NCBI GenBank assembly: GCA_965116875.1
Contig: OZ220733.1
Location: 3,872,001 to 3,936,000 of the forward strand
Origin: Candidatus Latescibacterota bacterium
Lineage (GTDB): Bacteria; Latescibacterota; UBA2968; GCA-2709665
Reading direction: 5' to 3'
Length of the DNA: 64,000 bases
Below are positions 994 through 18,721 of the stretch, one piece after another. Position 1 is the first letter of the stretch. Every line of letters begins with the position of its first letter. The position numbers and the translations under genes are program-made. The notes below the pieces were generated by a model. It did not search any database and was not told the DNA's origin. It was given only the letters and a program-made list of their open reading frames with translations.

Positions 994-1890
994 TCACCTG
1001 CAGGCCGTCGTCCGGTTCCCGTCCTGAAGTTCCCTGACAAAGGCCGGACTCAGCGTGCCCTGAGCGACCTCCGAGACCGGTCCCTTCATCGTCATGCGAA
1101 ACCCGGGGTCGACCGCGACGTGGAGGGCGCCGCCCGGTGCGTTCACGGTAACCGGAGATGCAGCCAGACCCAGGCGGACGGCCGCGCTCGCCGCCGCGCA
1201 GGACGAGGACCCGGATGCCTGCGTCTCGCCGGCGCCGCGTTCCCAGATGAGAATGAAGATCTCGTTCGGACCCGTGGGTACGGCCAATTGGACGTTGATG
1301 CGATTGGGGAAGAATTCGTGATTCTCCAGGGCGGGGCCGAGCTCGAGCAGGTCATCGCGGGTCCAGGACTCGTGCGCGGCTTTGAAGATGACGCAGTGCG
1401 GATTCCCCACGCTGACCCCCGTGAATCTCAGTTCGCGGCCGGCGGCGGCGATCGACCGTTCGATGAGCTCGCCCCCCGTCAACGTACACGGCAGCGCGAC
1501 GGGATCGAAGTCGGCCTGTCCCATCTCGACGGTCGCGAGGCCGGCATCGCCGTGACGGTCCAGGTGTACCTGGATCTCCACGCGGCCGCCGATCGTGTCC
1601 ACCGTGAAGCAGCGTTTTCGCGTCCGACCGGTGGCGTGGAGGAACCGGGCGAAGATGCGCAGGCCGTTGCCCGACTTCTCGGCCTCGCTGCCGTCCGGGT
1701 TCAGGATGCGCAGGCCGAAGTCGGCGCCATTCCCGGGTTCGAGGGTGAGGATGCCATCGCTGCCGATGCCCCGGTTGCGATCGCAGATGGTGCGGATATT
1801 GTCCGGTGTGAGTTCAAATTCCAGTTCGGCCGGATCCATGACGATGTAGTCGTTGCCCAGACCGTGGCCCTTATAGAAACCGTTTTTCAC
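994..1890 (-). CDS. dapF: Diaminopimelate epimerase-family protein with both catalytic Cys replaced by Ser
   Basis: KGHGLGNDY, GIGSDG, NPDGSEAEKSGNG, VGNPHCV, ERGAGETQASGSS. GTG start at 1890 follows GGGAGG; the ORF-track extension to 2109 runs through a MITE. Confidence 0.8.
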   Translation of the reverse strand: MKNGFYKGHGLGNDYIVMDPAELEFELTPDNIRTICDRNRGIGSDGILTLEPGNGADFGLRILNPDGSEAEKSGNGLRIFARFLHATGRTRKRCFTVDTIGGRVEIQVHLDRHGDAGLATVEMGQADFDPVALPCTLTGGELIERSIAAAGRELRFTGVSVGNPHCVIFKAAHESWTRDDLLELGPALENHEFFPNRINVQLAVPTGPNEIFILIWERGAGETQASGSSSCAAASAAVRLGLAASPVTVNAPGGALHVAVDPGFRMTMKGPVSEVAQGTLSPAFVRELQDGNRTTACR

Positions 1891-1914
1891 AAGACCTCCC
1901 GAACCCGTCCTTAG

Positions 1915-2074
1915 CAGCCCGTTGAAAAAGTCCATCCGGGCTACGGCCGGCCCTTGCGGTCGAAATACTGCGTTGCGCTCCCTCGCCGAATCAAAGGATG
2001 GGACTCGGTCGCGCGCCTTGTCTTCGGCCACAATGGCTCGGCCTCGCCTGCAGAGCGACTTTATCAACGGACTG
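1915..2074. mobile_element. MITE family A copy 1 (160 bp)
   Basis: TIRs CAGCCCGTTGAAAAAGTC / GACTTTATCAACGGACTG, with TTAG on both flanks (1911-1914, 2075-2078). Near-identical to 57629-57788. Confidence 0.9.
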
Positions 2075-2134
2075 TTAGGGGCTGTCCGACGGGAGTCGGA
2101 AGCCGGCATTTCCCCGGACGGGCGTCACCGGTAT

Positions 2135-4992: not shown

Positions 4993-6162
4993 TCAGGTCT
5001 GGTGCACGATTGGGGACAACTGGGTTGCGGGACACGCCCGCGCTCCCTTGACGTCGTACCCCATGTCTTTGAGGATGCAACTGATCTGGGATTCGAGCTG
5101 GAGGAGGTATTCCCTTTCTTCCCCGCTCATGGTCTGCCGCGGCGGACCGACGTCGAATCCGCGCACGGCCACACCGGTTTTGAATCCCTCGGGAAAGTTC
5201 ACACCCAGCAGCATGAGGTTGATGAGATCCAGGATGCGGTATTGCATGCTGCGTGCGTTCTCGAGGTCGCCGGACAGCGTCTTTTCATAGATATCCACAA
5301 TGACCTCGGGAATGATTCCGGACGTCGCGATCGTGCCTCCGCTGGCGCCCATCATGATGGATGGACACAGGATTTCCTCGCAGCCGACCAGGACCACGTA
5401 ATCGGGGCGCTGTGCGCGCAGTCGATGCATGGTATTGATCAACCGCGGCATATCCCTGCTGGAATCCTTGGTACCCATGATGCGTTCGAACGGCAGCAGA
5501 CGTTCCATAATGTCCAGCGTGAGTTCCTGCGTGAACTGGGGGATATTGTATAAAAGGACGTCGAGAGGGGTCTGTCTCGCAATTTCAGAGAAGTACTCGA
5601 AGAGGCTTGTGTCCGAGATCTCGTAATAGTACGGGGGTACGAGAGAGATGGCGTCGACGTCGATGCCCGCGTAATATTCGCTCATTCTGAGCACGTCGCG
5701 GAGGTTGGCTTCGCTGGCGCCCGCAAGAACCGGAATCCTTCCCTGGTTGACGTTCGTAACCAGGCGCACGACCTCCTTGCGCTCGTCGCTGGAAAGACGC
5801 ACGAATTCGCCGGTGCTGCCGTTGGGATACAGCCCGTGGATGCCGGCCTCGATGAGCCAGTTGACGTAGCGCTCCATTTCCCCGTAGTTGATGCGATCAT
5901 TGCCGTCGAAAATGACGATGTTGGGGCAGAAGATGCCCTTGAATTCCTTCCTCTCTCCGGATTTGCGACGTACGGCCGGCGTTGAAGCTGGCGGTCCGGC
6001 GGCTGTCGCTTCTTTCCTGGATACCTGGACCTGGCGGGCCGCAAGGTAGTCCAGCGCAAGCGGCGTCAGCTTTGCCCGCGGGCAGATTTCGACTTCCCGC
6101 TCAGAGCCCAGTTTTTCCTTGAGCAGTTGTTCGGTAACAACCGCGTCGTCAATACGGATCAT
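4993..6162 (-). CDS. DapA/N-acetylneuraminate-lyase-family class I aldolase with an extra ~50-aa N-terminal domain
   Basis: NGSTGE, PPYYY, LYNIPQ and GTKDSS (Schiff-base Lys). N-terminal VVTEQ..LTPLALDYL segment followed by an Ala/Pro linker. Confidence 0.88.
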   Translation of the reverse strand: MIRIDDAVVTEQLLKEKLGSEREVEICPRAKLTPLALDYLAARQVQVSRKEATAAGPPASTPAVRRKSGERKEFKGIFCPNIVIFDGNDRINYGEMERYVNWLIEAGIHGLYPNGSTGEFVRLSSDERKEVVRLVTNVNQGRIPVLAGASEANLRDVLRMSEYYAGIDVDAISLVPPYYYEISDTSLFEYFSEIARQTPLDVLLYNIPQFTQELTLDIMERLLPFERIMGTKDSSRDMPRLINTMHRLRAQRPDYVVLVGCEEILCPSIMMGASGGTIATSGIIPEVIVDIYEKTLSGDLENARSMQYRILDLINLMLLGVNFPEGFKTGVAVRGFDVGPPRQTMSGEEREYLLQLESQISCILKDMGYDVKGARACPATQLSPIVHQT

Positions 6163-6192: not shown

Positions 6193-7353
6193 TCAGTGGA
6201 TCAGCCGCTCTTCCAGCGCCGGATAGGGATGGGGAATAAGGTGTGCGGACACCAGTTCGCCGTACCTCTCCGCCTCCCCGGCGCCGATTTTCAGGGCGGT
6301 ACGCACCGCGCCGACGTCTCCACGGACGACGCTTGCCGTGAGAAAGTACCCTACCTTGTACCGGCCCTCGTACTCCACGTCCGCGGATTTCAACATCTGA
6401 TCCACGGCTTTCACCAGGGCCACCGTGCTGCGCGTTTCGATCAATCCCATCGCCTGATGCGGGCCCGAGGCGTTCCTGACGGTGTTCCCGCCGAAACATG
6501 CCATGATTTCGGAGGACGGGCGGGAAACGACACAGGATGCATTCAGTTCCCCGGCTTCCCGCGCGCCATCGATTCCCGCTTCCACGGCTGCCTGGACGGC
6601 GTCAAGTGCGCCTTTCACGAGCGCGTCGACCCGGCCGCCGCTGGCGATGACAAGCCGCATGAGGTCCACGTCGGCCGCTTTGACCATCGCATCGGATCCC
6701 CCGACCGCGGACGCATAACCCGTTGTTTCAAGAACACCCAGCGCGCCAGCGTCTTCCTCGTGCCCGTTGGAAACCGGCGCATCGGGAAGCAGCGGTGCGA
6801 TACCCGCTTCCGGTCTGGGAATTGCCAGGGTCCCGTAGACTTCCCCGGCTTCATCCGCACACACTTTTCCGGCCTCAAGCGCCGTCTGGACCGATGAAAT
6901 ATCGCCACGTACCACGAGATGAACCAGCGCGCCGCCAACGGACGTCCAGCCGGCGACGCGGACGGGCGCGCTCTTGACCATTGCGTCCGCGCCGCGTATC
7001 AGGGGTACCATGCCGCGCGTTTCAAGGATTCCCATCGCCTGCGCGCCAACCGGTTTCGCCGTGCCACCGCCCGCCATGTGCGGCATGGACTCGAGGGCGC
7101 CGGGGGCCGGGCCGGCGATCACGTCGGCGCGAATCAGTTCGCCGTGGGTTTCGGCTTCGGATCGCCCGATCCGAATGGCGGCCTCCACGTCCGAAACAAC
7201 GCCTTCGATCACGACGGTCAGCCAGCCGGATCCCACGCCGTGACGTCCCTGAACCCTGACGTCCACGGTCTTGAGCATGGCGTCCAGAGCCGCGACAAGC
7301 GCGGTCATGCCGCGGGTTTCCAGAATTCCCAGGGCGTGATTCCTTGCGGGCAC
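6193..7353 (-). CDS. Bacterial microcompartment shell protein with four tandem BMC (Pfam00936-type) domains
   Basis: Four repeats of A(L/M)G(I/V/L)xETxx...DxMxK...GxxxxV...xxP in 386 aa. Confidence 0.92.
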   Translation of the reverse strand: MPARNHALGILETRGMTALVAALDAMLKTVDVRVQGRHGVGSGWLTVVIEGVVSDVEAAIRIGRSEAETHGELIRADVIAGPAPGALESMPHMAGGGTAKPVGAQAMGILETRGMVPLIRGADAMVKSAPVRVAGWTSVGGALVHLVVRGDISSVQTALEAGKVCADEAGEVYGTLAIPRPEAGIAPLLPDAPVSNGHEEDAGALGVLETTGYASAVGGSDAMVKAADVDLMRLVIASGGRVDALVKGALDAVQAAVEAGIDGAREAGELNASCVVSRPSSEIMACFGGNTVRNASGPHQAMGLIETRSTVALVKAVDQMLKSADVEYEGRYKVGYFLTASVVRGDVGAVRTALKIGAGEAERYGELVSAHLIPHPYPALEERLIH

Positions 7354-7361
7354 GACGGCGC

Positions 7362-7919
7362 TCAGGGTCCGAACGCCCGCAGGACGTCGGGCAGGGGTTT
7401 GGGGATGAGGGCGTCGCCCAGGAAGTTTTCTCCGCCCTCGACGCTGGCGCGGCCCACGGGCAGGGCCTCGGCCACGGACGCCACGTCGCCAAGAATAAGG
7501 GAGCAGACCACCCGGTTGTGAACGGTGAGCACGTTATAGACCCGGACGTCGGCCGCCTTCACCATGTTGTCGTTGGCGGTGACGTGCGAGCCGTATCCTC
7601 TTGTTTCGATCAGACCCAGCGCGCCGGACGGCGTCTGCCGCTGTGTATCGTTTGCATTGGAAACGTAATCCCGGCAGGCGGGTTCGGGGTGCGTCATCGG
7701 CGCCGCCACGACCTGCCCTGACACTTCCCTGGCCGCTTCTTCGCCGCACTCGAGCGCCGTCGCCACCCTGCTGATCGATCCGCCGAGAAAGACGGTGGTA
7801 AATCCGCCGATGGACTCCCAGCCCAGGAGATCCACGCCGGCAGCCTTGCAGGCGGCGTCGGATGCGAGAATTATCCCCGCGACGCCTTCGACTTCGATCA
7901 TGCCGATCGCGGCTGACAT
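7362..7919 (-). CDS. Bacterial microcompartment shell protein with two tandem BMC domains
   Basis: AIGMIEVEG..DAACKAAGV..THP and ALGLIETRG..DNMVKAADV..IPKP. Confidence 0.92.
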   Translation of the reverse strand: MSAAIGMIEVEGVAGIILASDAACKAAGVDLLGWESIGGFTTVFLGGSISRVATALECGEEAAREVSGQVVAAPMTHPEPACRDYVSNANDTQRQTPSGALGLIETRGYGSHVTANDNMVKAADVRVYNVLTVHNRVVCSLILGDVASVAEALPVGRASVEGGENFLGDALIPKPLPDVLRAFGP

Positions 7920-8006: not shown

Positions 8007-10427
8007 TCAGAACAACAATACCGAGACCGCCTTCTGGATCATGGCAATGGAGACGGAGGCCATGCCCACCAGGGACATGCCCACCGAAAAACCGACGTAC
8101 AACACCGCCGCGTAGAGGCGCCATTGCTGTCTGCCGAAGCGCTTCCAGAAATAGTACCGCGCGAGGAGCGCGCCGATGATCTCGGTGATCATCACGTGGG
8201 GAATGCTGGTCAGACTCCGAATATATCCGAAGATGAGCAGGACCGGCAGGCCCAGGACGGACAGAACCACGAACGAGAACAGGCCGACGGCGAGTCCGAT
8301 GGCGATCACGATCGGCTTGATGGCTTCGAACAGGATCGGCTCGTCGTCCGAACTCTGCAGAAAGGAACCGTCGAAGGAGGGCACCTGGTCCACTTCGAAC
8401 TGATAGACAAGGTCCCGCCCCTCCGGATCCCGCGCGGCGAGCACGACCAGGTTGGGGTTGGGGTTGTCCGCGTGGCTTCCGTCATCCGGACCCCGCAATA
8501 CCGGCGCCGAAGGCAGCCCCCTTTCCAGAGCTTCGGATATGTCCGGCGCCGACCGGTCCACCGGAAGCGGCGGCACGAGCGGCTTCTCGGTACTCTTGAA
8601 GTTTGTATAGAAATACCCAACGCGGGACCACGGGCCGTACGTGCGTTGTTCGTGGTCGTCGATGTGCGCGTCGGCCGAGGCGCGGGCACGCCAGTACCAC
8701 CAGTTGCCGTCGGGCAGATTGCTCGGCTGGAAGGATACCGTCCCGGAGGATGCTTCGTGCTCCACCTCGCCCTGCATGGTACCCGTGTACCAGACGCTGC
8801 TCTGGAGCGCCCGCAGCGGCCACATCATCTGGACGTAGGGGTAGGAGGAGGAGGGAATGGGCGCCAGTTTCCAGATATAGGACCAGTACATGAAACTGGT
8901 CAGGAGGATCAGCGGGATCATGAAAACCTCCGCTTTCAGGATCCCGGTGAATTTCGAGCCCGTGAGTTCGATCTGACGGAATGTTTCGGCCTGTGCGCCC
9001 CAGTTGGCCAGGGGGAACGGCACAAACCAGATTTCGATACCCCTGAACCCACTCAGAAAGATCGTGGCTTCCTTGATATAGGGGATATTGACGTTCTGCC
9101 CGACCAGGCCGTCCAGACGGGCGTTGACGAAGGAGATCAGCGGCGTGTAGACAAAGGCGAAGATGAAGAAGAAGGCGAGCAGAAAGGTGCTTACGAGGTC
9201 GGGGAAGAGAATCTTGGCCAGGATTATGGTATACAGGCTCGCAAGACTGAAGAGTACGACGCAGATCCAGATCCGGAAGTCTCCCCGGCCGGGCGGCGGC
9301 GTCCAGCTGCCCTTTTCTTTCTTCTCCACGCGCGCGGTACGGACGCCCGTCCAGACCTGGTAGAATCCGATAATCGCAATGGCGAAGGTGATGCCGATCC
9401 CGAAGCTCATCCAGAAATCGATGCCCGTGACGAAGTGGGTCATGATGGTATCCATGCCCATGTACCAGTTGGGCATGTACCCGTAGGAATACAGGATGGG
9501 GCCCGCCGCGGTGTGGATGACGACGCCGATGAATGCGCCCATGACGGCCCAGAAGGGCGCCAGCAGCCCGGCGAAGATGGGGGCCAGGTGCAGCGTGAAA
9601 CCCAGCGGCGTGGCCGGCAGGAAATATCCCGTGTACTGGGTGAAATCCACCCACGGGATGGGAATGAGCTGAAGCGGGCTCTCCATGAACGCGCCGGTTA
9701 TGGCGGGCACCGCCACGTAGACGGAGCCGAATACCACGCCGATCACGGCGCCGATGCTGAAGACCCGCCATCGCCAGCTGTACTGGCCGCTGCTTTCTTC
9801 CGCGAGCGCCATGGCGCCCTGGGCGTTGATCGGCGCGAAGGGAAAGGGCAGGCGTTCGTAGTCGGAGGTGATGCGGAAGAGGACGTAACTCGCGGTGAAC
9901 CACTGGATGCGCCCCATGATCATTCCCAATACGAGCAGGGAGATGGGCAGGAGCCAGTCCTGATGGAGAAAGGTCCGGTCGATCAACGCCGGAGAATCGG
10001 GCGGGGGCGCCCACCAGCGGGGGATGAGGTGGGAGATGCCGAATTGCTTCGCTGCGGGAGACTGAACGTAGTACTGCTGCCAGAGCAGGCCTTCGAACAT
10101 GCCGGTTTCGCGGGCGACCAGGGCGCTGGTGACGTAGTAGAGCAGGTAGAGTTCCTGCTTCTTCAACACGGTGAACGAGCGCTTTGCCAGTTCCAGAAAC
10201 AGGATGATGGTCACCCACTGGGCGGCGGCGCCGACGGAATGTCCCACCATGAGTTCCAGGTAGATATTGCCCGGAACCATAATGACGGAAACGAAAAGCG
10301 CGCCGAGAATCGTCTTGGAGTTGAAGCCCTCTTCGAACTCCTTGGGGACTTCAAGCAGATCCCGGTACTCTTCGATTTCCTGGTACGGATTGGATTTCCG
10401 CCTGCGAATTCGATCCAGAAAGGCCAT
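8007..10427 (-). CDS. Polytopic membrane protein, OPT/peptide-transporter-like, with an inserted Ig/FN3-like loop
   Basis: Many TM segments; ERLPFPFAP motif matched by ERLAFPAMAP in the upstream DUF6785-like protein; soluble beta-rich insert near the C-terminus. Confidence 0.7.
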   Translation of the reverse strand: MAFLDRIRRRKSNPYQEIEEYRDLLEVPKEFEEGFNSKTILGALFVSVIMVPGNIYLELMVGHSVGAAAQWVTIILFLELAKRSFTVLKKQELYLLYYVTSALVARETGMFEGLLWQQYYVQSPAAKQFGISHLIPRWWAPPPDSPALIDRTFLHQDWLLPISLLVLGMIMGRIQWFTASYVLFRITSDYERLPFPFAPINAQGAMALAEESSGQYSWRWRVFSIGAVIGVVFGSVYVAVPAITGAFMESPLQLIPIPWVDFTQYTGYFLPATPLGFTLHLAPIFAGLLAPFWAVMGAFIGVVIHTAAGPILYSYGYMPNWYMGMDTIMTHFVTGIDFWMSFGIGITFAIAIIGFYQVWTGVRTARVEKKEKGSWTPPPGRGDFRIWICVVLFSLASLYTIILAKILFPDLVSTFLLAFFFIFAFVYTPLISFVNARLDGLVGQNVNIPYIKEATIFLSGFRGIEIWFVPFPLANWGAQAETFRQIELTGSKFTGILKAEVFMIPLILLTSFMYWSYIWKLAPIPSSSYPYVQMMWPLRALQSSVWYTGTMQGEVEHEASSGTVSFQPSNLPDGNWWYWRARASADAHIDDHEQRTYGPWSRVGYFYTNFKSTEKPLVPPLPVDRSAPDISEALERGLPSAPVLRGPDDGSHADNPNPNLVVLAARDPEGRDLVYQFEVDQVPSFDGSFLQSSDDEPILFEAIKPIVIAIGLAVGLFSFVVLSVLGLPVLLIFGYIRSLTSIPHVMITEIIGALLARYYFWKRFGRQQWRLYAAVLYVGFSVGMSLVGMASVSIAMIQKAVSVLLF

Positions 10428-15174: not shown

Positions 15175-17181
15175 TCAGAAGCGGTGAACGCTGTGGCCCC
15201 GTTCCGGGAACCAGAGGACGTCGATAAAGGCCGAGAGGGCGACGCCGAGTATATAGCCGGCGAGCAGGCCGATGAACAGGGGACGCGATTTCCTGTATAC
15301 GGAAGGCCCGCCCATCTTCAGCATCACCAATTTGACCAGCCAGGCCAGCAATATCGTCAGGCTGGTTCGCCGGGCCAGATACGAACCGGATATGGCCAGT
15401 CCGACGGGATGCAGCGGCCACCAGACGAATCGGTGACGCAGAAAAATGAGCAGGAGCGTGGCCAGGCCGCCCAGGCCGAAGAACACCATATGGTCCGGAT
15501 GTTCCCGGTAGACGGGCGGATCGGGCGGTTTTGTCAGGAAGTTCTTGACGGACGTCGCGGTGCCTTCGAAATGCTTGGGCCCCGCGCGCACGATTTCCCA
15601 GGAGTTGAAGTTGTAGGCGCCGTCCCGGTATCCCAACTGGATCGTGAGCAGCAAACTCGCGATCCAACTGGCCAGAAAAGCCAGTACGACGGCATACGCA
15701 AGACGCCGCCGGCCGCCCCGGACGCCCTCCGCAACGCGTCCCGCGTGTGCGAGGGCGGGCAGGAAGAGTCCCTTGAAGTGGGAGGTGATCCTGGAAGCGA
15801 ACCTGCGAGCGACGCGCGTTCGCTCGTTTATGATCGATCCCTCAAGAAAAGGCGATACGAGACCCCACGGGCCCGCCGGCACGTTGGTGTACGGCATGCC
15901 GGTTTCCGCGAGAATCTTGGCCAGGCCAACGTACGTGAAGATGACCGCCGGAAGGAGCAGGGCCGCCAGAAGCGGGTCGAAGCCGATGCGCCAGAGCCAG
16001 AGCCACATGAACGCGAGCCCCACAAGCAGGGCGACGACGGCCGTACGGCAGGAGAGCGGATCGTCCCGGTCGTCCATCGGATGGTCCCGGTTCCAGGCCT
16101 TGCGGAACACATCCCTGATGTGGCGTCTGCCTACCCAGAAGACGGAGGCGGCCAGCATGGCGAATGCGCCCTTGGTCTGCCAGTAATAGACGCCGCGGTA
16201 ATAATACGGCGATATGGCCGTAAACCCCCGGCGGTGCAGCCAGCCGCCTTCGGAAATGAACAGCAGGTCGAAGAACCAGATGCTGAACAGAACGTCCAGG
16301 CTGGCGAAATAGGAGAAGAAGATGGTAAACAGACCGATGAAGAAATAGCCGGGCGGATGCTGACGGTCGATCCAGAGCCAACGGCCCCGATAGACCGGAA
16401 ACCGTGGAAAGCCGGGCAGGAAATAGTTGATGCAGTTCCAGGCGATCATTCCGAAGGCCAGCCCGAAGCCGATCCAGAACAGGTAGTTCTTCGTGAAATC
16501 AGGGAGTGCGAATCTTCCGCTGCCGGGTTCTTCCGCCATGTGAATCAGGGGCGCCATCGCCGGAAATGCCAGGCGTTCGTTCTGCACCCACTGTCTGCGA
16601 AAGACGACGGCCACGCAGCCGAGGACCACGAATGCCGCGACGATGAACGTGGTCCACCACAACAGCGGAAGCACCCATGCATCCCAGGGGACCTGCGCGC
16701 CTTTGGGTGCGCCTTCGAAGAACCAGGTGACGGCCTTGTTTTCGTCTGAAGGGATCAGCCACGGGTTGATATACGGATGCAGGTAGATATGCCACTCGTT
16801 GACTTCGGTCGCGAAATAGTACGGGGATGCGATGTACCCAAGCAGATAGCCGCTCAGACCGAAACCGGGAACCGCCGCGCCGACGACGCCCATGGCCAGA
16901 ATGACGTGCCATTCCGCCGGCGCAAGCTTCCACCGGAAAATCCGCGCCAGGAGCGCGCATGCCATGATCATCAGCACAAACACGATGAGCATGGCCATCG
17001 GCACGTGGCTGTACGTCATCAGCGAACCGTGTACGACGTACCGGAGATGGATCGCAAGCGCGTCCAGGCCCAGGACAAGCACCAGGCCCGATGCCACGGA
17101 CCGGACCGTGACGCCTCCGGACGATTTCGTGGAGGCCGTGTCCGTTTCGGTAGGGACGGCTGTTCGTTCAGCGCTGGCCAT
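15175..17181 (-). CDS. DUF6785/DUF6784-like polytopic membrane protein
   Basis: RRQWVQNERLAFP, WWPLHPVGLA, GGPSVYRKSRPLFIGL motifs and many TM helices. Start taken at ATG 17181. Confidence 0.75.
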   Translation of the reverse strand: MASAERTAVPTETDTASTKSSGGVTVRSVASGLVLVLGLDALAIHLRYVVHGSLMTYSHVPMAMLIVFVLMIMACALLARIFRWKLAPAEWHVILAMGVVGAAVPGFGLSGYLLGYIASPYYFATEVNEWHIYLHPYINPWLIPSDENKAVTWFFEGAPKGAQVPWDAWVLPLLWWTTFIVAAFVVLGCVAVVFRRQWVQNERLAFPAMAPLIHMAEEPGSGRFALPDFTKNYLFWIGFGLAFGMIAWNCINYFLPGFPRFPVYRGRWLWIDRQHPPGYFFIGLFTIFFSYFASLDVLFSIWFFDLLFISEGGWLHRRGFTAISPYYYRGVYYWQTKGAFAMLAASVFWVGRRHIRDVFRKAWNRDHPMDDRDDPLSCRTAVVALLVGLAFMWLWLWRIGFDPLLAALLLPAVIFTYVGLAKILAETGMPYTNVPAGPWGLVSPFLEGSIINERTRVARRFASRITSHFKGLFLPALAHAGRVAEGVRGGRRRLAYAVVLAFLASWIASLLLTIQLGYRDGAYNFNSWEIVRAGPKHFEGTATSVKNFLTKPPDPPVYREHPDHMVFFGLGGLATLLLIFLRHRFVWWPLHPVGLAISGSYLARRTSLTILLAWLVKLVMLKMGGPSVYRKSRPLFIGLLAGYILGVALSAFIDVLWFPERGHSVHRF

Positions 17182-17350
17182 CGTTTGGCGTTGGAAGATC
17201 AGTGACGGGTGCGTGACTGAAAAGGCGTCCGGCCCGGTCTCGAAGCTCGATTCGGACGTGAGACCGGACCGGCGGGGGCGAAGACTCAATGATTCCTGAT
17301 TTTCGCAATCGGGCGATCCGGTACTGCCCCTGGTAATTTACAGCAACTGT

Positions 17351-17932: not shown

Positions 17933-18721
17933 TCAGTTGCTCAATTCTTCGATATCCAGCCCTTCGATCCGTCCTTCCTGGATGTCGATCTCATCCCGCC
18001 TCCGCACCAGTTCCACCTGTCCGTCCCGCAGGTCCACGACCCGATCTGATGCAACGAGCATTTTGTGGTCGTGTGTGTTCGTGACGATGGTGACGCCGCT
18101 CTCGGACTGGAGTCTCTGCAGCAACTCGATGATTTCCTGGCCGGTTTTGAGGTCCAGGTTGCCGGTGGGTTCATCCGCCAGGACCAGGTCCGGGTCGTTG
18201 GCGATGGCGCGGGCGATGGCCACGCGCTGCTGCTGCCCTCCCGAGAGTTCGTAAGGGTTGTGCTTCAGGCGTTCGCCCAGGCCCACCTGGGTGAGTTTGT
18301 GAGCGGCCCTTTCTTCGTATTCCGACTTTTTCATACCTGAAAAAACCATGGGAAGCGCGACGTTCTCCAGGGCGGTCATCACGGGGATCAGGTTGAAGCT
18401 CTGGAATATGTAACCGATATTGTGACAGCGCAGATAGGCGATCTGCGCCTGGCTGAGCGATCCCATTTCGATCGCATTGACGACGACCGTACCCCTGGAG
18501 GGCCGATCCAGGGCGCCAACCATGTTGAAAAGCGTTGTCTTGCCCGAACCCGATGGACCCATAATGGAGAGGTACTCGCCCCGGATGACGTCCAACGAGA
18601 CGCCGCGCAGCGCGTGGACTTCCTGGTCTCCCATCGAATAGGTTTTCCAGACGTCATGCACCTCGATGATGTGGTCTTCGTTTTCCTGATCCGCGGATCG
18701 GGCGTCGGGCGCCTGCGCCAT
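17933..18721 (-). CDS. ABC transporter ATP-binding protein (LolD/MacB/FtsE-like)
   Basis: Walker A GPSGSGKTT, signature LSGGQQQRVAIARA, LADEPTGNLD, H-loop THD. Confidence 0.95.
   Translation of the reverse strand: MAQAPDARSADQENEDHIIEVHDVWKTYSMGDQEVHALRGVSLDVIRGEYLSIMGPSGSGKTTLFNMVGALDRPSRGTVVVNAIEMGSLSQAQIAYLRCHNIGYIFQSFNLIPVMTALENVALPMVFSGMKKSEYEERAAHKLTQVGLGERLKHNPYELSGGQQQRVAIARAIANDPDLVLADEPTGNLDLKTGQEIIELLQRLQSESGVTIVTNTHDHKMLVASDRVVDLRDGQVELVRRRDEIDIQEGRIEGLDIEELSN

Follow-up and report, generated by a model that had tools for sequence, protein, structure and literature searches.

A four-domain and a two-domain shell protein of Latescibacterota that may together form one asymmetric microcompartment tile

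In this study, a stretch of 64,000 nucleotides from a Candidatus Latescibacterota bacterium (contig OZ220733.1, positions 3,872,001 to 3,936,000; referred to below as the window) was analyzed, in which two neighboring genes encode shell proteins of the bacterial microcompartment (BMC) type. One gene, designated D, encodes a chain of four BMC domains (D1 to D4), and the other, designated T, encodes a chain of two (T1 and T2). Our analysis suggests that T and D probably form an obligate 1:1 heterodimer that serves as one fully asymmetric pseudohexamer tile. In the arrangement proposed, one D chain would occupy four consecutive positions of a six-membered BMC ring and one T chain would occupy the other two, head to tail in the order T1-T2-D1-D2-D3-D4, which is also the order of the genes; the resulting tile would be a pseudohexamer of about 58 kDa without internal symmetry. 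An earlier note on this DNA had put forward such a heterodimer, and the idea is supported by gene adjacency in 68 of 68 loci, a matching pattern of presence and absence in 168 genomes, conservation of the six positions, and a structure prediction for D with T, all of which are comparative or predictive lines of evidence. The two genes and their domains are located in the window as follows; domain coordinates were taken from a whole-genome PF00936 scan, as genome coordinates minus 3,872,000.

7362-7919, minus strand: gene T, 2-domain BMC shell protein, 185 aa, ATG start, about 19.0 kDa; proposed partner for two ring positions
7354-7361, minus strand: T/D spacer of 8 nt between the T stop codon and the GTG of D, as read in the sequence
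6193-7353, minus strand: gene D, 4-domain BMC shell protein, 386 aa, GTG start, about 39.5 kDa
7704-7910, minus strand: domain T1, PF00936; edge D21-x-x-x-K25; pore loop W34-E-S-I-G-G39-F40
7395-7622, minus strand: domain T2, PF00936; edge D117-x-x-x-K121; pore loop T-V-H134-N135-R136-V; C139 invariant
7108-7335, minus strand: domain D1, PF00936; edge D24/K28; pore loop H38-G-V-G-S42-G-W44; linker with an M90-P91-H92 motif behind D1
6811-7038, minus strand: domain D2, PF00936; edge D123/K127; pore loop W136-T-S-V-G-G141-A-L-V-H145
6517-6744, minus strand: domain D3, PF00936; edge D221/K225; pore loop A-S-G239-G240-R241
6226-6453, minus strand: domain D4, PF00936; edge D318/K322; pore loop K333-V-G-Y336-F337-L

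When the two proteins were compared with Pfam, PF00936 was matched in four stretches of D (E 6.7e-75, 247.5 bits) and in two stretches of T (E 1.2e-32, 112.2 bits), against a cut-off of 24.5 bits; judged from the sequences, these matches and the accompanying motifs are far beyond chance. The six domains are pairwise 27-44% identical. In both proteins the best Pfam stretches run through profile positions 1-75 in order, and an AlphaFold2 model of D displays the succession strand-helix-strand-strand-helix-strand four times, that is, without circular permutation. The description given in the earlier note, namely two and four tandem, non-permuted BMC domains encoded by neighboring genes 8 bp apart, was borne out by the PF00936 counts (two in 185 aa, four in 386 aa), by the agreement of profile order with the modeled secondary structure of D, and by positions 7354-7361 lying between the two open reading frames (ORFs). 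The edge motifs that it listed (DAACK and DNMVK in T; DAMLK, DAMVK, DAMVK, and DQMLK in D) and the pore loops (IGGF and VHNR; VGSG, VGGA, SGGR, and VGYF) are likewise all present in the translations.

The coupling of T and D was assessed by two surveys. In the first, all ORFs of 73 loci were translated and compared with T, D, and the aldolase encoded next to them (see below). Full-length D was contained in 68 of these loci, and a T orthologue was located directly upstream of it in all 68. The estimated T-D spacing was -35 to +9 nt in 67 of the 68, with a 14-nt overlap as the commonest value, and 172 nt in the remaining one; short spacing or overlap of this kind would fit translational coupling. 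As for the other five loci, in four (L076, L079, L081, and L082) the contig ends within D, and one (L075) contains a split D. The earlier note had suggested testing whether four-domain genes always have a two-domain gene beside them; homologues without the partner were not found in these loci. The second survey covered 168 genomes of the phylum, using thresholds of E <= 1e-30 for T and E <= 1e-60 for D. T was detected in 84 genomes and D in 82; every genome with D had T as well, and a further 84 had neither; because the 168 genomes are kin, these counts and the presence-absence pattern do not constitute a statistical test. In the two genomes with T only, T was located within the last few hundred bases of a contig (contigs of 2,050 and 18,536 bases). 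There was no case of one gene without the other where the assembly permits judgement.

The D family itself is large. A word-indexed search, in which 8000 candidates were scored, returned at least 303 homologues of D at E <= 1e-5. The best 120 of these 303 were 366-424 aa long and 53-97% identical to D; where named, they carried generic labels only and came from metagenome-assembled genomes (MAGs) of Gemmatimonadota or Latescibacterota. The shorter matches that were checked were either fragments on contigs of 782-3,075 bases or clustered with full-length members of 383-387 aa. In the ESM Atlas, D corresponds to a 457-member cluster of 382-aa proteins. Judging by these matches, the family is common in uncultured Latescibacterota and Gemmatimonadota, sponge-associated ones included. 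Moreover, several of the 73 species-level loci (one genome per species) reside on closed long-read chromosomes, and the T/D junction was bridged without insertions or deletions by DNA contigs of three separate studies. The earlier note had raised the objection that the four-domain ORF might be an assembly artefact; independent assemblies agree across the 73 loci, and the objection falls away.

Position-specific conservation was counted over 99 D sequences and 41 T sequences. The aspartate and lysine of the edge motif D-x-x-x-K, whose lysine serves contacts between tiles, were retained in 97-99 of 99 sequences at each of D1 to D4, and in 41 of 41 at T1 and T2. In the title of PDB entry 4qif, K26 of PduA is assigned to the edge and S40 to the pore, and the pore position (the equivalent of PduA S40) was taken as the residue 14 positions on from each edge lysine. 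The residues at this position were conserved as follows.

T1 pore residue: G39, kept in 41 of 41
T2 pore residue: N135, asparagine in 27 of 41 and aspartate in 14 of 41
D1 pore residue: S42, kept in 94 of 99
D2 pore residue: G141, kept in 96 of 99
D3 pore residue: G239, kept in 99 of 99
D4 pore residue: Y336, kept in 95 of 99

Conservation extended to other residues around these sites. In T1, D21, K25, W34, G38, and G39 were each found in 41 of 41 sequences, and in T2, H134 was found in 38, R136 in 40, and C139 in all 41. In D1, D24 and K28 were present in 99 of 99 each, H38 in 97, W44 in 98, and H92 in 99; the corresponding counts were 99 for W136 and 98 for H145 in D2, 99 each for G239, G240, and R241 in D3, and 95 for K333 in D4. 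W44, H145, R241, F337 (or Y), F40 (or Y), H134, and R136 are conserved neighbors within the pore loops. In the proposed tile, six different and individually conserved pore loops, marked by G39, N135, S42, G141, G239, and Y336, would come together, flanked by the conserved residues R136, R241, H134, W44, F40, and F337; provided that all six domains share one ring, the sequences predict an asymmetric pore. Because a D-x-x-x-K lysine would be present on all six edges, the tile should be able to take a place next to BMC-H hexamers in ordinary facets. T also contains two further cysteines besides the invariant C139: C82, found in 35 of 41 sequences, and C24, which lies inside the edge motif DAACK. 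Some BMC-T proteins bind a metal or a cluster.

A domain tree was constructed from 13 D and 10 T orthologues together with neighboring ordinary BMC-T and BMC-H domains. Every one of the six positions was recovered as a single clade, with Shimodaira-Hasegawa-like approximate likelihood ratio test (SH-aLRT) support of 96-100. From this it follows that the six-domain layout is older than the divergence of these lineages and that no position has been homogenized or is interchangeable with another. T1 and T2 were placed on very long stems (1.1-1.6 changes per site), apart from ordinary BMC-T and BMC-H domains. Two domain trees left the deep branches among the six domains open. An origin from a duplicated three-domain unit (pairing T1 with D2, T2 with D3, and D1 with D4) was also considered and dropped, since it had only motif likeness and D1-D4 as the closest pair in its favor and was neither supported nor rejected by the trees.

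These conservation data bear on the possibility that T and D are ordinary redundant shell paralogues, in which case D would be a neutral fusion of two BMC-T genes that has no special assembly or does not enter shells at all. Gene fusions do occur, and three-domain BMC proteins also exist. However, the D family is old and under strong position-specific constraint, as indicated by a mean column identity of 66% and 46 invariant columns in the alignment of 99 sequences and by the six separate clades, and four distinct pore loops together with an invariant linker motif would not survive in a neutral fusion. Furthermore, a four-domain chain alone cannot close a hexagon. We regard this explanation as very improbable.

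The AlphaFold2 model of D, built from the 99-sequence alignment, had a mean predicted local distance difference test (pLDDT) score of 91.4 and a predicted TM-score (pTM) of 0.90, suggesting that the four domains are confidently placed relative to one another. When this model was compared with the PDB by using Foldseek, the best matches were nine chains of 6NER (TM 0.88-0.91 by target length, 179-190 columns, 38-40% identity). Since the 6NER match extends over two domains, adjacent D domains would sit like neighbors within one hexamer. Natural BMC-T chains (such as PduT and the BMC-T of Haliangium ochraceum), by comparison, were matched over one domain only (TM 0.41-0.45 by target length, root-mean-square deviation about 15 A), and the order or handedness of the fused domains in the D model may differ from that of natural BMC-T. 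Permuted PduA ranked low as a structural match. 6NER is a synthetic tandem BMC-H fusion within an assembled Haliangium ochraceum shell, and it demonstrates that serial BMC-H-like domains in neighboring ring positions still build shells. It is man-made, however, and assembles as a homotrimer of chains that each repeat one domain twice, whereas T and D occur naturally and comprise a chain of four different domains and a separate partner of two domains.

The D model also speaks to a reading in which three D chains (12 domains) would build two linked or stacked hexagons, as a covalent inter-tile bridge or a double layer, with T as a separate tile. The arithmetic allows for bridging (3 x 4 = 2 x 6), and double-stacked BMC-T trimers exist as a class: the main text of PMC8217296 describes BMC-T(dp) as circularly permuted, with two trimers stacked face to face. 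Yet it is precisely this permutation that the T and D domains do not share with the known double-stacking trimers. In the D model, moreover, all four domains are confidently placed, with adjacent ones arranged like neighbors in one ring; the three D linkers, as read from the domain boundaries, are similar in length, and none resembles a longer inter-tile bridge. Bridging would also leave the obligate T partner unexplained. Nothing was found in support of a bridge of three D chains, which we consider a remote prospect.

The structure of the complex was predicted for D and T as a pair, each supplied as an alignment. The D and T complex scored 0.74 (0.79, 0.74, and 0.73 in individual runs), compared with 0.00 for the best of three controls; among solved complexes, 58 of 80 attain a mark of 0.74, as do 2 of 110 mismatched pairs, although this calibration is only rough, as our own alignments were used. 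The runs agreed in at least 91% of contacts, and the partner had a pLDDT of at least 88. T was predicted to contact only D1 and D4: T2 residues 107-138 would meet D1 residues 8-92, and T1 residues 7-85 would meet D4 residues 308-365. No contact with T was predicted for D2 and D3. At the first of these interfaces, helix A of T2 and the hairpin that follows (107-138) would pack on the D1 sheet (8-48 and 74-79) and tail (82-92); at the second, helix A of D4 (308-322) would pack on the T1 sheet (7-9, 35-42, and 71-85). The predicted interface includes invariant or conserved linker residues, namely M90-P91-H92 of D and P78 of T. These contacts predict a closed six-membered ring, head to tail, in the order given above. 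The 1:1 complex envisaged in the earlier note can hence be modeled as a ring that closes via D1 and D4, a result for which likeness to solved hexamers may be the explanation.

Several points weigh against a specific heterodimeric tile. Because BMC hexamers and trimers are abundant among solved structures, the model tends to lay any six BMC domains in a ring, and the controls for the complex prediction were unrelated proteins, not other BMC proteins; the favorable score of D with T would indicate hexamer likeness, not partner specificity. Adjacency is also what shell genes sharing an operon would display in any case. When covariation between the two chains was examined (69 paired sequences, about 21 effective), 0 of the top 60 pairs fell in the predicted interface, compared with 0.5 expected (Mann-Whitney p 0.17); the set is too shallow to count either way. 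Finally, no fused six-domain chain was found that could serve as Rosetta-stone proof; neither this form nor a split 2+2+2 form was present among the best 120 of the 303 D matches or among the best 150 representatives of all lengths. The argument for T as the specific partner of D comes from genomics.

It is conceivable that D fills four positions while the other two are taken by two BMC-H monomers or, in other genomes, by a nearby ordinary BMC-T of 186 aa, with T assembling into its own homotrimer like a standard BMC-T. T does have the standard two-domain, non-permuted BMC-T layout, two BMC-H genes are present in this genome, a further BMC-T and a BMC-H are encoded just upstream in most distant loci, and fold prediction for D with T cannot distinguish among BMC partners. 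On the other hand, T and D were never found apart where assemblies permit judgement, and this genome encodes no other BMC-T. T1 and T2, despite their long stems, are conserved within the family, which indicates a specialized role, and the overlap of the T and D genes points to equimolar synthesis. Taken together, these observations make such substitute partners unlikely, and the 1:1 heterodimer of T and D remains the reading that we favor. A 1:1 stoichiometry in the cell, and incorporation of the tile into a shell, are what we infer from this reading.

How would such a tile relate to known shell components? In the main text of a 2021 catalogue (PMC8217296), five hexagonal building blocks are distinguished: BMC-H, its permuted form, and three kinds of two-domain trimers. 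BMC-H tiles consist of six identical chains with one PF00936 domain each, and the chains described here have four and two. Exactly two non-permuted domains per chain, as in BMC-T(s), were found in T but not in D, and neither protein has the permuted domains of BMC-T(sp) or BMC-T(dp). By its sequence, T alone would pass as a standard BMC-T, and D fits no class. Chains of three or four domains are not mentioned in the main text of the catalogue, in which pfam00701 and DHDPS also have 0 occurrences, though the supplementary tables might list these genes under another label. Likewise, full-text literature searches and passages of PMC8217296, PMC4207490, PMC4454575, and PMC3909097 yielded no mention of 3- or 4-domain BMC chains, although other wordings could be missed.

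The closest natural likeness is to BMC-T(s) proteins such as PduT (PDB 3n79, 3pac), in which, as in T and D, non-permuted PF00936 domains are joined head to tail into a pseudohexamer of the size of a BMC-H hexamer. A BMC-T(s) tile, however, is built from three identical 2-domain chains with threefold symmetry, whereas the tile proposed here would be built from a 4-domain and a 2-domain chain, with six non-equivalent domains and no symmetry. In beta-carboxysomes, CcmK3 and CcmK4 reportedly form heterohexamers (work attributed to Sommer et al. in 2019), so that one hexagonal tile arises from more than one gene product and sixfold symmetry is broken; these are said to be separate single-domain chains that mix in variable ratio. 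In contrast, covalent fusion in T and D would fix both composition and ring order, with all six positions different. The pair would thereby combine a known fold and tile shape with a new chain architecture in which all internal symmetry is lost.

Current descriptions build shell facets from tiles of six-, three-, or pseudo-sixfold symmetry, and a natural tile whose six positions all differ and follow a covalently set order would, if true, be a new block. It would have one pore without a repeated residue, six different edges, and two unique faces; owing to these features, the tile could contain a selective passage, adopt a defined orientation, or provide one enzyme with a single place to dock. 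From an engineering viewpoint, it would represent a naturally evolved, fully addressable tile with six independently changeable positions, which is now approximated by synthetic fusions such as 6NER. The family also points to an uncharacterized microcompartment function centered on a DHDPS-family aldolase, whose gene in the window is located as follows.

4993-6162, minus strand: DHDPS/NAL-family class I aldolase-like gene, 389 aa, 30 nt downstream of D; PF00701 at residues 74-361
6013-6162, minus strand: N-terminal domain of this aldolase, about 50 aa, followed by a disordered linker (residues 53-70), according to AlphaFold2

The aldolase gene was found directly downstream of D in 64 of the 68 loci, the exceptions being L030, L045, L064, and L074. 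With a mean column identity of 72% (35 sequences), the aldolase is more conserved than the shell proteins. It matched PF00701 with 187.8 bits and fell below every NCBIfam equivalog cut-off (best, N-acetylneuraminate lyase, 160.9 versus 281). Its nearest solved relative was E. coli YagE (E 5.5e-36), which was deposited as a probable 2-keto-3-deoxy-galactonate aldolase; entries for KDG/KDPG aldolase and DHDPS ranked next. In the AlphaFold2 model, residues 1-50 form strands and helices (block pLDDT 79-87), residues 53-70 are below 50, and the barrel follows. When the N-terminal 53 aa were compared with the proteins of the same genome, only the aldolase itself was found. In a distant locus (L028), the N-terminal domain has a counterpart at the start of a 148-aa protein (42% identity over 48 aa), and it was this protein, not the aldolase itself, that weakly matched TIGR02536, 'ethanolamine utilization protein'. 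Such a protein is absent from the vicinity of the T-D pair in the genus of the window. We propose the N-terminal domain as a candidate shell-targeting domain and the aldolase as a likely cargo or signature enzyme tied to the tile. As a putative aldehyde-releasing cargo enzyme, it might be served by the tile as pore, dock, or both, and the tile would then be a dedicated pore or dock for this co-inherited, YagE-like enzyme with its N-terminal domain. A targeting domain shared with the nearby DapF (diaminopimelate epimerase) was considered and rejected, as the N-terminal domain of the aldolase is unrelated to the DapF extension.

The 148-aa protein (L028:5545-5991) belongs to no Pfam family and is encoded between BMC-H and T; equivalents of 148-165 aa occur in many distant loci (for example, L031, L033, L053, and L061). 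In L028, the gene order is aldehyde dehydrogenase, PduL-type phosphotransacylase, BMC-T, BMC-H, 148-aa protein, T, D, aldolase, DAO-family flavoenzyme, and a second DHDPS-like gene; the genes around T and D in such distant loci make up a complete metabolosome core. Beyond the genus, the constant association is limited to T, D, and the aldolase, with a CehA-like hydrolase and a PhyH-family gene alongside in 16 loci.

The genome under study is a single 5.45-Mb contig with eight PF00936 domains, six of which are those of T and D; the other two belong to single-domain BMC-H genes near 826 and 834 kb. In the PF00936 scan, T was the only two-domain shell protein of this genome. Three PF03319 (BMC-P) genes were found at 826-830 kb. 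The main locus (L085, 824-836 kb) consists of BMC-H, BMC-P, aldehyde dehydrogenase, BMC-P, BMC-P, a class II aldolase with a C-terminal extension, acetate kinase, and then the second BMC-H; it also encodes two proteins, of 475 and 253 aa, without a Pfam family. With the main locus near 826-834 kb and the window starting at 3,872,001, the T-D pair is a satellite shell locus about 3 Mb away. For FRAG/PVM-type loci, the main text of the 2021 catalogue (PMC8217296) reports shell-gene sets that are fragmented and include a BMC-P triplet; they occur in Gemmatimonadetes, Planctomycetes, and candidate phyla. The distant main locus of this genome is similar to these in its BMC-P triplet, aldehyde dehydrogenase, and class II aldolase, and its gene set resembles the fucose/rhamnose-type (PVM-like) metabolosomes described there. 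We envisage the pair as a satellite of this PVM-like main locus, with its two BMC-H, three BMC-P, aldehyde dehydrogenase, class II aldolase, and acetate kinase genes. As to transcription, a sigma-70 promoter scan returned 0 sites, and terminator-like matches were uninformative. In one RNA-library run, short contigs at least 95% alike covered 6366-6577 and parts of the aldolase gene; none of them spans two genes and DNA carry-over is possible, so that they provide no evidence for an operon transcript.

A broader scenario can be drawn from these observations, which as a whole we offer tentatively, as a doubtful proposal. The 4+2 pair would add a sixth class to the natural hexagonal tiles. As an obligate heterodimer whose six positions are all non-equivalent, it would have one fixed orientation within the shell and act as a dedicated gateway. 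Its single asymmetric pore, with conserved arginines on opposite sides (R136 of T2 and R241 of D3) and an aromatic patch, would admit an anionic 2-keto-3-deoxy-sugar acid, and its unique inner face would dock the N-terminal domain of the YagE-like aldolase, so that the aldehyde would be freed inside the compartment. The three genes would then be a module that could be added to an existing PVM-like microcompartment for a new substrate.

Natural three-domain BMC proteins were also observed. Fourteen representatives of 50%-identity clusters (P0133, P0135-P0138, P0140-P0142, P0144, P0150, P0158, P0163, P0165, and P0173), 283-330 aa in length, each contain three complete BMC domains according to our own domain hidden Markov model, and six of them were confirmed to carry three PF00936 matches. 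They come from metagenomes, and one cluster has a member in a Dehalococcoidia MAG. To complete a hexagon, such a chain would have to dimerize or recruit other partners, and it would also be outside the H/T/P classes. A link between these proteins and T or D was considered and rejected, as their domains did not group with particular positions of the six in the tree. The split D of L075 (3258-4431, from a Gemmatimonadaceae MAG) results from a frame change in the D3-D4 linker, which yields ORFs of 302 aa (three domains) and 86 aa (one domain), with T still upstream and the aldolase downstream; this split may reflect either an error in sequencing or a genuine 2+3+1 variant.

The remaining observations concern other genes of the window. 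The DapF ORF (994-2109, minus strand) has an apparent N-terminal extension of 77 aa, whereas the ORFs of relatives are about 298-330 aa; the extension is probably an over-long ORF call in a housekeeping gene. Directly upstream of T and on the same strand, positions 8007-10427 (minus strand) encode an 806-aa multi-pass membrane protein without a Pfam or NCBIfam match, followed further upstream by a DUF6785/DUF6784 protein (15175-17289, minus strand) and an ABC ATPase (17933-18721, minus strand). Conservation of the 806-aa gene beside T is confined to the genus and L025, and the encoded protein could be a transporter for the pathway substrate.

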